Shown one piece after another: positions 6,394 through 42,030 of a DNA stretch of 64,000 nucleotides (positions within the stretch are counted from its first letter, which is position 1; the number at the start of each line of letters is the position of its first letter). Location of the stretch: assembly GCF_006345805.1 (NCBI RefSeq), contig NC_043004.1, positions 103,168,001 through 103,232,000 on the forward strand, written 5' to 3'. The position numbers were made by a program, and so were the translations under genes. The notes under the pieces are model-generated. The model did not search any database. It saw only the letters and a list, made by a program, of their open reading frames with translations, and was not told where the DNA came from. This stretch comes from Octopus sinensis. Lineage: Eukaryota.

Positions 6394-6791
6394 CTAGCAG
6401 TATCGCCCGGCGTTGCTCGGGTTTGTAAGGGAAATAACTATATAAGCATTTTTAGAGAGTTATAGCCAAAAAATAGCAAAAAAAGCATTAAAAATGGGAA
6501 AAAAAATGATGGTAAATTTTTTTTTAATCGTTGACTCATCGTAGACATTTTTAGAGAGTTATTTCCCTTATATAATAGCGAAAAAAATGCATTAAAATGG
6601 AAAAAAATTATGGTAAATTATTTTTAAAATCGTAGACTCATCGTAGACGCGCGCTAATACCCAGAAGGGCTCGATATGAATCACAACTATAAGATACCCG
6701 GTTTTGGTTAAACTGCACCGCAAAATGTGGGAGTAGTTAGGAATCTAAATCGTAGGAGACAGACACACAACTTCACTTTTATATATAAAGA
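6394..6791 (-). mobile_element. Non-autonomous Helitron, copy 1
   Basis: Minus strand reads A|TCTTTATATATAAAAG...CCCGAGCAACGCCGGG (hairpin)..CTAG|T. This gives a 5' TC, a 3' hairpin plus CTAG, an A|T insertion site and no target-site duplication (TSD). Confidence 0.85.
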
Positions 6792-11337: not shown

Positions 11338-11625
11338 TATAACAACAGTCTCGTAAAGTTTGTAGATCTAATAAGTTTTTTTGTTTTGTTACTTTAGCAC
11401 AATCGTGATATTTGCGTCTCTTTAAAGAAGGCTTATTGTTGGTCAGTGAATTTGTTGTCGGTGGATTGTCATCCTAGAAATTTTCCACACACGTGTATTT
11501 TCCGATGTTTCCAACGTTGTTTGCGCTTATTTTCAAGTTTTTTTTTTATTAATTCAGTTATTTAAATGTGCTTCAAATGTACAATGTTCATCTTTACTAA
11601 ATGATTGCTGTAGTTGTTTAACCTC

Positions 11626-12159
11626 TATGTCACGCTGGTGAGACCCATATTGGAGTACGGGATTCAAGCCTCTTCTCCTTATCTCCTCAAAGACATACAG
11701 CATCTCGAAAGAGTCCAGAAGCTGGCTACCCGCATGGTTCTTGGTCTCAAGAATTTGTCTTATGAAGAAAGGCTGAAGAAGCTCGACCTTTATTCTCTTG
11801 AAAAACGACGACGCCGTGGTGATCTCATTCTTGCTCACAACATCATAAGCGGAAAGTGTAACCTCTCGAAAGAGCTGTTCTTCACTCCTGCTCCAGAGCG
11901 TCGGCTGCGGGGTCATTCCGAAAAGCTCTATCTGCGACGATTTCATCTCAATCGAAGGAGAGGGGCTTTCTCCGTCTGGGTTGCGGATCCGTGGAATAAG
12001 CTGCCGGACGAGATGGTGAAGATGCCGACGATCGCTCGGTTCAAAGTCTCCCTTGACCACAAGTGGCCTGAACTCTTTACATGAACACCACCCTGTACAT
12101 AACTCCATGTCCCCCTACATGGCCTTGCTTTTGCTTTTTGAGCCAAAAAATTAACTAAC
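11626..12159 (+). mobile_element. 5'-truncated CR1/L2-group LINE, 3' end
   Basis: ORF reads LYVTLVRPILEY...LERVQKLATRMV..LSYEERLKKL.LYSLEKRRRRGDLI...LRGH..KL...WNKLP. It has a (TAAC)n tail and a probable TSD TAACCTC. Confidence 0.9.
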
Positions 12160-17972: not shown

Positions 17973-18005
<33 letters not shown>

Positions 18006-18410
18006 CTAGCAGTATCGCCCGGCGTTGCTCGGGTTTGTAAGTGTAATAACTATAAAGCATTTTTAGAGAGTTATAGCCAAAAAACAGCAAAAAATACATT
18101 AAAAATGGAAAAAAAATTATGGTAAATATTTTTTAAAATCGTTGACTCATCGTAGACATTTTCAGAGAGTTACTTCCCTTTATTTAAAAAATATGCTTTA
18201 AAATGGAAAAAAATTATGGTAAATTATTTTTAAAATCGTAGACTCATCGTAGATGCGATGCGCGCTAATACCCAGAAGGGCTCGATATGAATCACGACTA
18301 TAAGATACCCGGTTTTGGTTAAACTGCTGCACCGCAAAATGTGGGAGAAGTTAAGAATCTAATCGTAGGAGACAGACACTCACATAACTTCACTTTTAAT
18401 ATATATATAT
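18006..18410 (-). mobile_element. Non-autonomous Helitron, copy 3
   Basis: Same CTAG and hairpin end as copy 1. The other end merges into (AT)n. Confidence 0.8.
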
Positions 18411-18769
18411 ATAATATATTATTATATATATTATATATTATCTAATATAATAAATCTCTGAACGAGATATAAACAGTAACCGCTCGACAACGTAAGGGGT
18501 ATTAGCCATCTGAATGTGGCTAGCCACTGGGGGGGGGGAGGGTTACTGATGCTTTTAGCCCCAGGCGATCAACGTCACCAGAAGGACTTTAGACACTATC
18601 TCAGTGCCCTTGTGTGATTTGCAAAGGGAAGTCATCCTCCCTCGAAGACCTTCGTTCAGAGATTTATTATTGTTTTCAGACAGTTTTTCTACATCAGTGA
18701 CAGTGATTACTGTGAAAAATGTTATATATTATTTGCAAGGGGACTCCTTCATCGAAGACCGGTGCTTAC

Positions 18770-18814
18770 CATGCGTTGACGAGAGGCAATTACCTTGAAA
18801 CTATAGTCCGTATG
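18770..18814 (+). ncRNA. Type I hammerhead ribozyme (U3/G8 core variant)
   Basis: Stem I CATGCG/CGTATG, core TTGACGA, stem II GAGG(CAATTA)CCTT, GAAAC, palindromic stem III ACTATAGT, and GTC cleavage triplet at 18806-18808. Confidence 0.85.
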
Positions 18815-19119
18815 TAGTACTCGGGTCTTCGAGGGGGATGACCTCCCTTTGCAAATAACACAAGGGCACTGAGATAGTGTCTAAAGTCCTTCTGGTGACG
18901 TTGATCGCCTGGGGCTAAAAGCATCAGTAACACCCCACCCCCCAGTGGCTAGCCACATTCAGATGGCTAATACCCCTTACGTTGTCGAGCGGTTACTGTT
19001 TATATCTCGTTCAGATTATTATGTTTTCAGACAGTTTTTCTACATCAGTGACAGTGGTTACTGTGAAAAACGTTATATATTATTTGCAAGGGACTCCTTC
19101 ATCGAAGACCGGTGCTTAC

Positions 19120-19164
19120 CATGCGTTGACGAGAGGCAATTACCTTGAAACTATAGACCGTATG
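19120..19164 (+). ncRNA. Second hammerhead copy, cleavage triplet mutated GTC>GAC
   Basis: Identical to 18770-18814 except GAC at 19156-19158. Confidence 0.75.
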
Positions 19165-19330
19165 CAGTACTCCGGTCTTCGAGGGAGGATGACCTCCCTT
19201 TGCAAATAACACAAGGGCACTGAGATAGTGTCTAAAGTCCTTCTGGTGACGTTGATCGCCTGGGGATAAAAGCATCAGTAACACCCCCCCCCAGTGGCTA
19301 GCCACATTCAGATGGCTAATACCCCTTACG

Positions 19331-19383
<53 letters not shown>

Positions 19384-30977: not shown

Positions 30978-31310
30978 AGTTCAGTCCCACTGCGTGGTAC
31001 CTTAGGGAAGTGTCTTCTACTATAGCCCCGGGCCGAGCAAAGCTTTGTGAGTGGATTTGGTAGACGGAAACTGAAAGAAACCCGTCGTATATATGTATAT
31101 ATATGTGTGTGTGTGTGCTTGTGTCTGTGTTTGTCCCCCTAACATCCACTTGACAACTGATGCTGGTGTGTTTACAATCCCGTAACTTAGCGGTTCGGCT
31201 TAAGAAACCGATAGAATAAGTACTAGGCTTACAAAGAATAAGTCCTGGTGTCGATTTGCTCCAGTATGGCCGCAGTCACATGACTGAAACAAGTAAAAGA
31301 GTAAAAGAGA
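30978..31310 (+). mobile_element. SINE family A with truncated head
   Basis: Starts at the B-box. Its tail supplies the spurious N-terminus of ORF 31256. Confidence 0.85.
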
Positions 31311-31322
31311 ATGACATACATA

Positions 31323-32975
31323 CACGGGAACTGGGATGCGGGACGAGCGTGTCAGCATATGCGGACGATGTCACCGTCATAGTGTCGAGCGACAAACACA
31401 TCCAGCTGATAGGCGAGACACTAAGAAAATACGAAACGGTGACGGGAGCGAAGATTAACCCGGAAAAGTCAGTGGGTTTGCTACTCGGCACCTGGAGAAG
31501 CAAGCCCATGCCGTCCAACTGTGGCTCAGTAGTGGGACGCTGGACGGACGGACCGGTTAAATTGCTCGGGGTCTGGTTCAGTCCGGACCTCCAAATGGAT
31601 AAGAACTGGGACGAGATCACGAGTAGAGTGGTCGCTCTCAGCCAAACATGGGCCGAGAGAAAGCTGTCTCTAAAAGGCCGGGCGGAGGTGGCGAACGCGT
31701 ACATCGCATCCGTCATCGATTACCGCCTGACCGTCGTACCTTGTCCCGACGCCACCATTTGCTGTCAACATCCGTTGAATGGAGGACTGGGCATGCCGTG
31801 GTTGATGATGCGCAGGCATGCGCTGAGACTGCGGCATCTCTGGAACTTCATCGACGACGGTGAACAGATGTGGGTGCCGTTTGTGAGGTGCGCCTTCCTG
31901 CAGCTCGTCTCACTGACCGAACTGCAATCGTGGATCAAGAAGAGACCGAAACTGGGCGATTGGCACCGAGAGTGTCGCCAAGCTCTACAGCAGCTCTGCC
32001 GACCGGGGTCAAACTTGTGCAACTTACAAACGACTAAAGCGTTCTATAGAGGACTAGTGGAGGGGAGGTCCGACGACACACTCGGGGCAAACCTGGGCGT
32101 CGACGAGAAATTCCTAACCCGCCTGTTCAGGACGACGTTCGGGCGGGGGCCTATAGATAACTTCCAGAAATCCCTGGCTTGGCAGTGCTATCGAGACGCA
32201 CTACCTGTTCGAGAGAAGAGCTACAGGCATGGTTCGAAAACCATCACCGGACCGACCTGCCCGAGATGCGGTCAGAGCGACGAAACCGTTCTGCACGCAC
32301 TCGTGCAGTGTCCAGATATTTCAGAGCTGTGGACCTTCGTCGAACAGCTGTTGTCACGTGTAGGTCGGGCCCGCCTATCGGCCGAGTCTATCGTGAGTAT
32401 TGTTCCACCACCTTCCTTTAAACGGGAAGGGAAAACGGTTTTCGTTACGCTGATGGCTATGGCGAAAGAATGTGTGTGGTGGACGCGTTTGAAAGGACTG
32501 CAAACAAACACCTTCCTCTCTGGTCAGTCTCTCGTCAACTTTTTCAAGTACCACTTGAAAAGGAGGATGAGAATAGAGAGGAAGGCTTTGTCGAACGAAT
32601 GTTTTAATAAAAAGTGGGTAAAAGTGGCAAAAATGGTCAGTATAAAAGACGACACTATTTTAAGCATAAATCTGTAAGCAAAAGAGACAACGAGAAGTAA
32701 GGCGACTTACTCATGTGTTCTTTTTCGAACTGTCTGAGGTGACCTTGGTCTTTTTTGTAGGTTTTTCTTTCCAAGGCTACACCTAAACTGTGAACTTTAT
32801 ATATATATATTGCTTTTTTATACACCACACAACCCACAGATCCCTATTGATCAAACGTTTTATTTTTGTTTTTGTTTTTTGTGCCCCACCCATCCCACCT
32901 CGAAAAGAAAAAATTCTACATTGTATTTCGTCCATTTTTATTCTGTGTTTAGCCCTGTGTGGCTACAATAAAAAG

Positions 32976-37505: not shown

Positions 37506-38448
37506 TAATGTGTGTGTGTGTGTGTGTGTGTGTGTATTCTTCTATTTGTTTCAGTCATTGCACAGCCATGTGTTGTACAATCACAACTTTGAGGGATTTG
37601 ATCAAGCGAAACGTCTCCAGTATTAATATGTTCTTTTTATCTATCGTTCTTTTTATCGCAACTGCTAAGTTACTAGAACTTCAACTCTCCAAGATTGACA
37701 GCCAAACGGTGGCATACACATGCACACACATGCATATGCACACATACATACGTACATACATACATATATGCATACATACATACATACATACATACATACA
37801 TACATACATACATACATACATACATACATACATACGTACGTACATACATACATACATACACAGATTAGGTGTGATTTTGTGGATACGGTCATATTTCTGT
37901 GGAAGACGTTACACATGATTAACAGCTGCCCAGAAATATCAACAAAGTACTACGTCCCTTTACGATACGACGTTACAAGAAAAAAGTCAGTTCTGGAAGA
38001 AATGTAGAGAATACTATGTTATTGAATTCATACACAAACATCAACACAAGGAATATTGGTGGAACATTCTCGTTCAAACATTTCCGAGAAGCGTAAACCT
38101 AAAAGGCTGGATATTGTTGTTTGGAACAGGCACAAACGTTTACACTGTAATAGGAGATAGATGTTCTGCTGATGAGAGCATGGAGATATAGATATATAGA
38201 TATGTAAACATGATAATAATAGAATATAGATAAAAATAATAATAAATCTCTGAACGAGATGTAAACAGTAACCGCTCGACAACATAAAGTATACTAGCCA
38301 TCGCAATATGGCTAACCACTAGGGGTGGGTGTTACTGTAGCTTTTTAGCCCCAGGAGATCATCGTATCCAGCTGGCTTTGGACACAATTTCTGTGCCCTT
38401 ATGATATTTGCAAAGGGAGGTCATCCCCTCTCGTAAACCTAAGTGATA

Positions 38449-38493
38449 CGCACGGACTCCAGTTTCGAGATTATTGTCTCTTGTCAACACACG
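38449..38493 (-). ncRNA. Type I hammerhead ribozyme (U3-A8 core variant), inverted copy
   Basis: Minus strand reads CGTGTG-TTGACAA-GAGA(CAATAA)TCTC-GAAAC-TGGA-GTC|CGTGCG. Confidence 0.75.
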
Positions 38494-38730
38494 GTAATCA
38501 CGGGTTTTCGATAAGAGAGACCTGTTTGCGAATATCTATTTAATGTTTTTCCCAGTAACCACTGTCACTGATTTCGAAAAACAGTCTGAAAGCGCTTACT
38601 GTTTACATCTCGTTCAGAGATTTATTATTGCTTTCAGACCGTTTTTCGAAATCAGTGACAGTGGTTACTGGGAAAAACGTTAAATAGATATTCGCAAACA
38701 GGTCTCTCCTCATCGAAAACCGGTGATTAC

Positions 38731-38775
38731 CGTGCGTTGACAAGAGACAATAATCTCGAAACTGGAGTCCGTGCG
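38731..38775 (+). ncRNA. Type I hammerhead ribozyme (U3-A8 core variant)
   Basis: CGTGCG-TTGACAA-GAGA(CAATAA)TCTC-GAAAC-TGGA-GTC|CGTGCG, with GTC at 38767-38769. Confidence 0.8.
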
Positions 38776-39089
38776 TATCACTTATGTTTACGAGAGGGGA
38801 TGACCTCCCTTTGTAAATATCATAAGGACACAGAAATTGTGTCTAAAGCCAGCTGGAGACGATGATAACCTGGGGCTAAAAAGCTACAGTAACACCCACC
38901 CCTAGTGGTTAGCCATATTGAGATGGCTAGTATACTTTACGATAAAAATAATGAAATATAGAGAAAGACGTTTTTTTTTAAATTGAAGATATGATATAGA
39001 GACAGTAATAGGCATTTAAAAAGAGTCTTGGGTAACATGTTAGAGGAAAATAAGGTGTTCCAACGATCTTATACTATAGACTCGGGATA

Positions 39090-40827: not shown

Positions 40828-42030
40828 CTATCCTTCAATAAACTGTATCCCAAATAAGCTGTAACGGAACATTGATAAATGATTTGCATAACGTTTTTTG
40901 AACGTTCCTTCACATATCCCGATATATGTCTTTTCGGTTATGTTATTGTTGTTGGAGGTTACAATCACATAAGTCGCGTATATAACTGACTCTGTCATAC
41001 ATAGTTTATCAAGTGGACAAGACTCAGATTCAAGACAATTACAGCCAGCTTCACTCTTCTGGCACTTGCTTCGTGTGATAATGTTTTCCACTGAATTCAT
41101 ATTGAACAATTTCCTGGATTTATGGTCACCCGGGAAGTGCTTATCTAAAAGCGCGTGGAATTTCTTGCCAATGTTTGTTTTAACGTTGAGGGCAAAAGGA
41201 GGGGCAAACCAAATAATATTTCTAGACCTATTCTTACGCTTTGTTTTATCACTATTGGTGTTTAGACTATCATTACAAGGGGACTTGTAAACTAATTTTT
41301 CTCTAAACCCGCTATTAGCAAAAGCTTTATTGTAATATGGTGTGGCCTTATTAAAAATTTCCTCAGAAGACGAGAGAGCTGACACATTTTTGCTAATATT
41401 CTCTATTAAGTTCCTAAGTACGCTCGATGGGTGGCAAGACTACTTATGTGTGTATGTAAGTTTTCCATTAATTTTATGAAACGACTTGTAAGAGGAAGAA
41501 GTTAGGTCGAAGGACACAACTAAATAATCAACTACAGAATGATAGGTAGTTACAGTAATTTTTAGCCCCAAATGACAAAAAGGAGAAATTAACCGCTTTC
41601 TAAATATATCATCCCGGTATAGTCCCACATTATAAGATAGGTAATTATAATGTTTTGTTTGTTCCTTCTCGAGCCATGCCTGGCTCATAAGGGCGGTATC
41701 CCGGTTTCCTTGGCGTATAGGTTCCTCACCTGGACGGGACACCGGTCCGTCGCAGGCGAGCTGCAAGATGCAGGAGGAAAGAGTAAGAGAAAGTTGTGGC
41801 GAAAGAGTCAGCAGAAGTTCGCCATTTCCTTCTGCCAGAGCCGCGTGGGGCCCGGTCTGAGATTCGAACCCGCGATCCCTCGACCGCGAGTCCGCTGCTC
41901 TAACCACTAGGACATGTGACACCTCTTAATTATAATGTAGTGTATGCAATGTTTGTGCTATCGTATGACCCCATAGAAACATCGAATAGTTCGTCACTAT
42001 TCGACATTTCTATCCAAGTTGCAAATGGCA
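40828..42030 (-). mobile_element. Degraded Penelope-like element (RT plus GIY-YIG endonuclease), interrupted by a SINE
   Basis: RT motifs FDVSMGSYD and GLYRDD. Downstream RNIIWFAPPF..NVKTNIGKKF, CNC..CPLDKLC..SVIY and YIGICEGTFKKRYANH. Confidence 0.9.
41652..41925 (-). mobile_element. SINE family B, tail type 3, internally deleted
   Basis: Homologous to 50311-50622. TSD TAATTATAATGT. Confidence 0.85.

Follow-up and report, generated by a model that had tools for sequence, protein, structure and literature searches.

The window, the whole 64,000-nucleotide stretch of Octopus sinensis DNA analysed here, carries at 18447-19332 one insertion between TA-rich tracts, in which an inverted partial copy lies head-to-head with 1.9 tandem units. 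The flanking sequences are a TA-rich target tract on the left (18399..18446) and a (TA)n target tract on the right (19333..19381); because the flanks are (TA)n, a target duplication is unreadable at this locus. Sequence comparison defined an inverted arm on the minus strand (18447..18650, locus L001), which is 5'-truncated and lacks a hammerhead, and a first tandem unit of 355 nt on the plus strand (18652..19006), whose positions are numbered q1-q355. The inverted arm spans unit positions ~173 to 355+~20 and terminates at the long fixed end A, ...GAGATTTATTAT[TGTT]. The second, partial tandem unit (19007..19332, plus strand) terminates at the short fixed end B, ...CCCCTTACGTT, and an internal copy of the 'tail' region, running from end B (q332, 18983) to end A (q355+24), occupies 18976..19031 on the plus strand. 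The tandem copies are 96% identical over 333 nt and the inverted copy (18444-18650) is 95% identical to the unit, which bears out the head-to-tail repeat with a preceding inverted partial copy described in an earlier note on this DNA. The unit length of ~350 nt proposed there is correct as the spacing at this locus, but the family unit measures ~355 nt, the second window copy having a small deletion. Base pairing is possible between the inverted arm and the forward unit along ~200 bp (18447-19031), and read-through transcripts of this segment would give long double-stranded RNA.

Each tandem unit carries a type I hammerhead on the plus strand, at 18770..18814 (motif intact; motif and covariation) and 19120..19164 (sequence comparison). 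As the earlier note had placed them, the helices I start at 18770 and 19120, 350 nt apart, with TTGACGA cores at 18776 and 19126; the first site reads GAAAC-TATA-GTC and ends at C18808, and the second has the cleavage triplet GAC (U16.1 lost) at 19156-19158. A rod defined by repeats, fold and covariation extends helix I (18730..18857, plus strand). The arms proposed for it, TATTTGCAAGGG at 18730/19081 and CCCTTTGCAAATA at 18845/19196, are present, and TCGAAGACCGG at 18752/19102 pairs with CCGGTCTTCGA at 19172, the first copy of which is CGGGTCTTCGA at 18822, with one change. The TAGCCA/TGGCTA and CTGGGG/CCCCAG hairpins were both found. The GAC triplet is a private change, seen in 1 among 123 distinct subfamily-1 rods; two consecutive intact hammerheads are therefore absent at the window locus, which could be cut at most once and yield no monomer. 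The window copy thus appears to be a dead product, disabled at its second site as had been suspected, and in a double hammerhead only site 1 would be cleavable.

A separate insertion at 38233..38941 belongs to subfamily 2, is 80% identical and has U3-A8 hammerheads; it consists of two head-to-head arms with termini A and B, one each. Elsewhere in the window, a repeat starting with TACTAG and followed by a GC hairpin occupies 18005-18398, with a related stretch at 6447-6648; we take the 18005-18398 repeat to resemble the 3' end of a Helitron on the minus strand. A LINE fragment with RT and zf-RVT domains by Pfam lies at 31220-32677 (plus strand), and 11614-12084 (plus strand) looks like the end of a LINE ORF, with no Pfam match.

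The hammerhead consists of helix I CAUGCG/CGUAUG, the core UUGACGA, helix II GAGG/CCUU with loop CAAUUA, GAAA and the palindromic ACUAUAGU, and the cut is predicted 3' of C18808 (q157). The core is a U3 variant; in subfamily 1 the two conserved pairs U3.G8 and G10.1.U11.1 are wobbles, so this subfamily may be slow. An Rfam search detected no hammerhead in the window at gathering score, nor in either copy at E<=10; the assignment accordingly rests on motif and covariation. For covariation, 28 copies were picked at <93% identity and 7 were dropped for chimeric flanks, deletions or redundancy. In the remaining 21 copies, 93.6% of cells pair, compared with 28-46% in slid controls, and 10/30 pairs show two-sided change, although independent events are few because the rows are related. 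The 3-8 core pair is U-A in 10 copies, U.G in 8 and C-G in 3, and is never broken (21/21). The centre of the helix III palindrome is AU in 9, GC in 9 and otherwise in 3; ACUAUAGU in subfamily 1 is mostly replaced by ACUGCAGU elsewhere, a double change that keeps self-complementarity. Such self-complementarity fits the dimeric hammerhead described in PMC4209133 for short palindromic helices III, a source that also describes U3-A8. Helix III is disfavoured in the monomer (-11.7 vs -17.0, a cost of 5.3 kcal/mol), and the palindrome duplex is worth -7.2 kcal/mol. For the 350-nt monomer the folding energy is -110.3 kcal/mol (z = -3.4; 0/100 shuffles as good), and its circular fold has a z of -3.3. 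In the putative hammerhead of subfamily 3 (L224-L243) the core reads CCGAAGA (U4C), and a C.A mismatch takes the place of the basal pair of helix II. Among the examined loci, 23 distinct monomers have a motif-intact hammerhead on both sides.

The unit belongs to a family dispersed over most large contigs of the 2.7 Gb genome. A DNA search returned 2694 first-look candidates, of which 40 were scored, and the best full-length matches among those 40 are 94-100% identical. Exact-pattern searches, which give lower bounds, found at least 161 copies of a 45-nt hammerhead and at least 431 of a 33-nt end (tail) motif genome-wide, with 0 for either control; the copy-number check proposed earlier thus reveals a dispersed family with 161 exact hammerheads and 431 exact end motifs. 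There are at least three subfamilies, 10-20% apart, the third met through the 33-nt tail motif search. More diverged subfamilies, 68-76% identical, occur at L253:1295-1421 and L126:3333-3592, with the same A/B ends or the inverted form. We examined four sets of 99, 27, 17 and 18 distinct loci, after removal of 14, 3, 13 and 2 duplicates of one place, respectively. The unit has no LTR and no tRNA head, its longest stop-free frame is 67 codons, and the GC of the region is about 0.39. Arms are short (longest 1003 nt), and head-to-tail runs reach 2.8 units, uninterrupted by an ORF. Copies inside one locus differ by ~2%, from which the family is judged young but without identical copies in the sample. 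Four runs guessed to be RNA, as assembled contigs, covered 23-30 of 30 bins with no end pile-up and one single-contig joint; being assembled and only guessed RNA, these contigs are uninformative on strand, cleavage and circles. On the motif, the covariation and the lack of a long frame, the earlier classification holds: the unit is non-coding, present in many copies and of the non-LTR retrozyme kind, with a type I hammerhead.

Regular ends characterize these insertions. End B (q328-334, ...CTTACGTT) terminates 76 of the 172 arms in 99 subfamily-1 loci, and end A (q17-27 in the following unit, ...GATTTATTATTGTT) another 70; the remaining 26 stop at other positions. The two fixed ends are ~47 nt apart, and neither is the ribozyme site. 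The 99 loci contain 59 head-to-head pairs, 48 with two canonical ends; 45 of these combine A with B, 2 are A+A and 1 is B+B, where half would be expected to be A+B (p = 6e-11). The rule was repeated in the three further sets (10/10, 9/9 and 4/4, after exclusion of 2, 2 and 4 pairs in which an end was non-canonical), so that 68/71 inverted insertions over all sets have one arm per end. Of the canonical pairs, 30/48 sit in (TA)n, and all 18 outside (TA)n have target duplications of 9-16 bp (18/18; mode 12-13), scored with a few bases of slop allowed, compared with 10/188 in a swapped-flank control. Most single-arm loci showed no target duplication. A (TA)4 lies within 14 nt of 78/146 ends, and the flanks are 91% AT. 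When subfamilies 1 and 2 are aligned, conservation is highest in the B-A region (93% vs 78-83%, one pair compared), as expected of a putative protein-binding and priming site. Junction overlaps were seen in 36/59 head-to-head pairs, mostly of 1-4 nt, too short for microhomology to be called. What the earlier note had missed is that the element is dispersed in short arrays, and that these ends, the target duplications and the inverted arm form a Penelope-like insertion signature, which gives the mobilisation route.

The tandem structure and microsatellite flanks would also suit a satellite-like repeat spread by DNA recombination, its inverted arm arising by fold-back or repair with no second priming; fold-back self-priming on antisense RNA has indeed been proposed for Penelope inversions (PMC3846280). 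We regard this as very improbable: the family is dispersed on most large contigs and has target duplications, and recombination or fold-back alone would not give the inverted arm a fixed second end, as found in 68/71 pairs.

The 5' ends, by contrast with the fixed 3' termini of the arms, are flat along the unit, with 5/172 near the cut site vs 5.3 expected. cDNA arrived at the ribozyme site in 167 instances and ended there in 4, which is the background rate, and 25/172 arms passed two or more ribozyme sites; these read-through counts are inflated because most loci were selected for holding a hammerhead, and in the set selected on the tail only, 1 of 29 stopped. The lack of 5' ends at the ribozyme site indicates that a linear cleaved monomer was not the usual template. 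Comparison at 16 diagnostic sites showed agreement of tandem copies in 602/621 cases, of opposite arms in 661/672 and of different loci in 55%. Locus-private variants between arms were shared in 12 cases and unshared in 132; the unshared ones are expected of post-insertion change and thus say nothing on one versus two RNA molecules.

Hydra-clade elements of the genome are candidate helpers. At 40828-41925 (minus strand) the window carries a decayed Hydra-type Penelope-like ORF fragment, interrupted by another repeat, with 14,303 first-look candidates in the genome. Through its segment 40828-41439 we reached a family of many copies with a 717-aa frame (L134-L138), which is autonomous, Hydra-clade and young, with copies 96-97% identical (e.g. 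L135:3767-6312). Pfam and PDB searches did not recognise the 717-aa ORF, and the clade call rests on RWK, DKT, CxCx5C, CxxC and CxH motifs and a visual match to Hydra-1_Obim. This family has a hammerhead-like motif with a CCGAAGA core in its 3' UTR and inserts in (TA)n, with opposite arms one short and one long, ~68 nt apart, as judged from the 5 loci with both ends readable, an alternation like that of the unit. It was rejected as an end-sharing helper, as it has neither ends nor other sequence in common with the unit (p = 0.11); the Penelope-like family of the L141 chimera was rejected likewise (p = 0.55). At L082 the surrounding family acts only as a target, its relatives lacking the unit, and the neighbour at L226 is a chance one.

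The published octopus element Hydra-1_Obim has a 27-nt motif with 12 exact matches in the genome. The words CGGTTACTGTTTA, CTTACGTT and GATTTAT..TATTGT occur at the 3' end of Hydra-1_Obim-type copies (L244-L268) as well as in the unit's tail, though in a permuted order; shuffle p values for these words were 0.003, 0.003 and 0.05 in three copies picked post hoc, and the 13-nt shared word occurs in only 3/25 Hydra-1 copies. Hydra-1 may be regarded as a tentative lead for the helper. Among the four families compared, no autonomous element shares the unit's ends outright. The helper is likely a Penelope-like reverse transcriptase/endonuclease of the Hydra clade. L141:1452-2625 and L158:1452-2640 are one chimera at two sites with different flanks, 96% identical, in which a subfamily-2 arm ending at A stands head-to-head with the 3' end of another Penelope-like family; this may reflect co-insertion of two RNAs that later moved as one piece.

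Could the copies instead be 5'-truncated pLTR ends of an autonomous Penelope-like element, either unfound or lost from the genome? Ends, tail and inversions are as in autonomous elements, and the examined loci number only 161 against thousands of first-look candidates. The unit itself is not such an element, with an RT and GIY-YIG ORF between pLTRs, as no ORF lies in it or is joined to it in sense; the earlier note had raised the case of a mere pLTR beside an autonomous ORF, and in the loci examined no ORF was found joined in sense. Units stand head-to-tail up to 2.8 times without an intervening ORF, and protein searches of the loci match 8, none with an ORF so joined: at L082 the unit has inserted into an old element, relatives of which are without it, L226 is head-to-head with a decayed fragment across other sequence, L141 and L158 are head-to-head chimeras, and the remaining four, judged by position only, show no sense ORF junction. 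The helices are also the short canonical ones of retrozymes, whereas the PLE hammerheads observed in this analysis have a long helix II. A pLTR origin is therefore unlikely, and the unit is in all likelihood a non-autonomous, Penelope-mobilised hammerhead retrozyme.

Non-LTR retrozymes were defined, with circles shown in coral, mussel and axolotl and Penelope-like elements (PLEs) named as candidate helpers, by Cervera and de la Pena in 2020 (PMC7229834), which gives units of 350-390 bp in mussel and 330/350 bp in axolotl. With the metazoan elements as described there, the octopus unit has in common a non-coding unit of 150-450 bp with GC below 50%, a type I hammerhead with a 6-bp helix I, a 4-bp helix II and a short palindromic helix III, tandem copies, target duplications of >4 bp and autonomous PLEs in the same genome. 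It differs in that arrays hold 1-3 units, mostly head-to-head inverted, and that circles are here only predicted; the octopus cores are U3.G8, U3-A8 or C3-G8 with U4C, the standard CUGANGA never being the majority form. The main text of PMC7229834 does not contain the words 'inverted', 'octopus' or 'cephalopod', though its supplement could list cephalopods. A plant LTR retrozyme, with a type III hammerhead in LTRs and a 4-bp duplication, was rejected, the octopus unit having type I and 9-16 bp.

PLEs form partial tandems, accompanied by a truncated copy in inverted orientation and by a tail of 30-40 bp that is frequently confined to one end (PMC8557442, Fig. 2), and Penelope target duplications are 8-10 bp (PMC3846280). 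A Penelope protein is reported to nick and extend both strands, to prefer AT-rich DNA and to start internally at two sites that define the tail, with no difference in start site between strands (PMC11167929). The octopus insertions resemble the PLE pLTR and tail of these three sources in their partial tandems, inverted 5'-truncated copy and one-ended tail, and in duplications of 8-16 bp, AT-rich or (TA)n targets and two internal start sites; they differ in that the unit has no ORF, the tail is 47 nt vs 30-40, and the whole element is the repeat. With Hydra-clade PLEs, including Hydra-1_Obim (PMC8557442), they have in common (TA)n targeting, a hammerhead near the end and short/long ends; these PLEs show no extended homology to the unit, and word order and hammerheads differ. 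Vertebrate retrozymes have been presented as non-autonomous PLE derivatives, and 8/9 Xenopus elements failed to cleave (bioRxiv 10.64898/2026.07.22.740005). The conclusion on origin is the same, but in that preprint it is based on co-occurrence and pLTR similarity in 35 genomes, with no mollusc, whereas the octopus evidence is insertion anatomy. As the cited sources describe it, the insertion architecture is already known for autonomous elements. In the literature searched, Penelope architecture was not found used as evidence for retrozymes, nor was the rule of one end per arm found counted; the family was likewise not found described in literature on octopus or cephalopod hammerheads, Penelope or retrozymes.

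We propose the following route for the retrozyme. Where a locus has two intact hammerheads, its read-through transcript would fold as a double hammerhead through the palindromic helix III and cut out a monomer, which a host ligase would close into a circle. The helper protein would nick both target strands ~12-13 nt apart, and cDNA would be primed at end A by one nick and at end B by the other, on the same sense RNA. Synthesis would proceed round the template over a variable distance in each case, and the two products, both truncated, would be joined head-to-head. A non-autonomous retrozyme with Penelope-type priming on both target strands very probably explains every genomic observation. The whole reading, including a small RNA circle as the inferred template, we favour only slightly over its negation. 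The circle is weakened because PMC11167929 found the ribozyme dispensable in vitro: hammerhead mutants inserted normally, and uncleaved RNA was the main substrate. Also against it stand the two weakened pairs of subfamily 1, the cost of helix III in the monomer and the failure of 8/9 Xenopus elements to cleave. A caveat is that the same variant in both arms could reflect successive waves of one source.

The template of the same Penelope-mobilised element could instead be linear, either a multimer left uncleaved or a monomer copied repeatedly through template jumps, with the hammerhead acting later or only with protein and the circle unnecessary. The weak core of subfamily 1 speaks for a linear template, and the lack of 5' ends at the ribozyme site fits it as well as it fits a circle. 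Against it, with neither a circle nor jumps, short arrays (maximum arm 1003 nt) would shrink from one generation to the next; compensating changes have preserved the dimer palindrome and the 3-8 pair among the subfamilies, which indicates selection on cleavage; and related retrozymes in coral, mussel and axolotl occur as circles (PMC7229834). We therefore consider a linear template possible but rather doubtful. The circular template can be extended into a more speculative joint proposal, to which we give a similarly low credence in its entirety: a protein dimer would nick both target strands and prime with each subunit at its own site (A or B); both cDNAs would come from one 355-nt ribozyme-made circle and continue across its ligation junction; the recognition motif of Hydra-1 would have been taken up by the circle in permuted order; and the strength of the ribozyme would have been adjusted from lineage to lineage through the 3-8 pair as C-G, U-A or U.G.

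The class of element is itself known, and no host function is indicated. The integration of retrozymes, and the head-to-head inversions with a one-ended tail in PLEs, are open questions in the papers cited; the octopus family provides counted genomic evidence for Penelope-type priming by a retrozyme, and it sets a near-strict rule for any mechanism, namely one end per arm, the same variant in both arms and no stop at the ribozyme site. It adds natural U3.G8 and U4C hammerhead cores, and together a 355-nt RNA and a 700-aa Hydra protein make a compact system for comparing circular with linear templates. Were the extended proposal true, a single event would account for tail, head-to-head inversion and tandem repeats in all Penelope-like elements.
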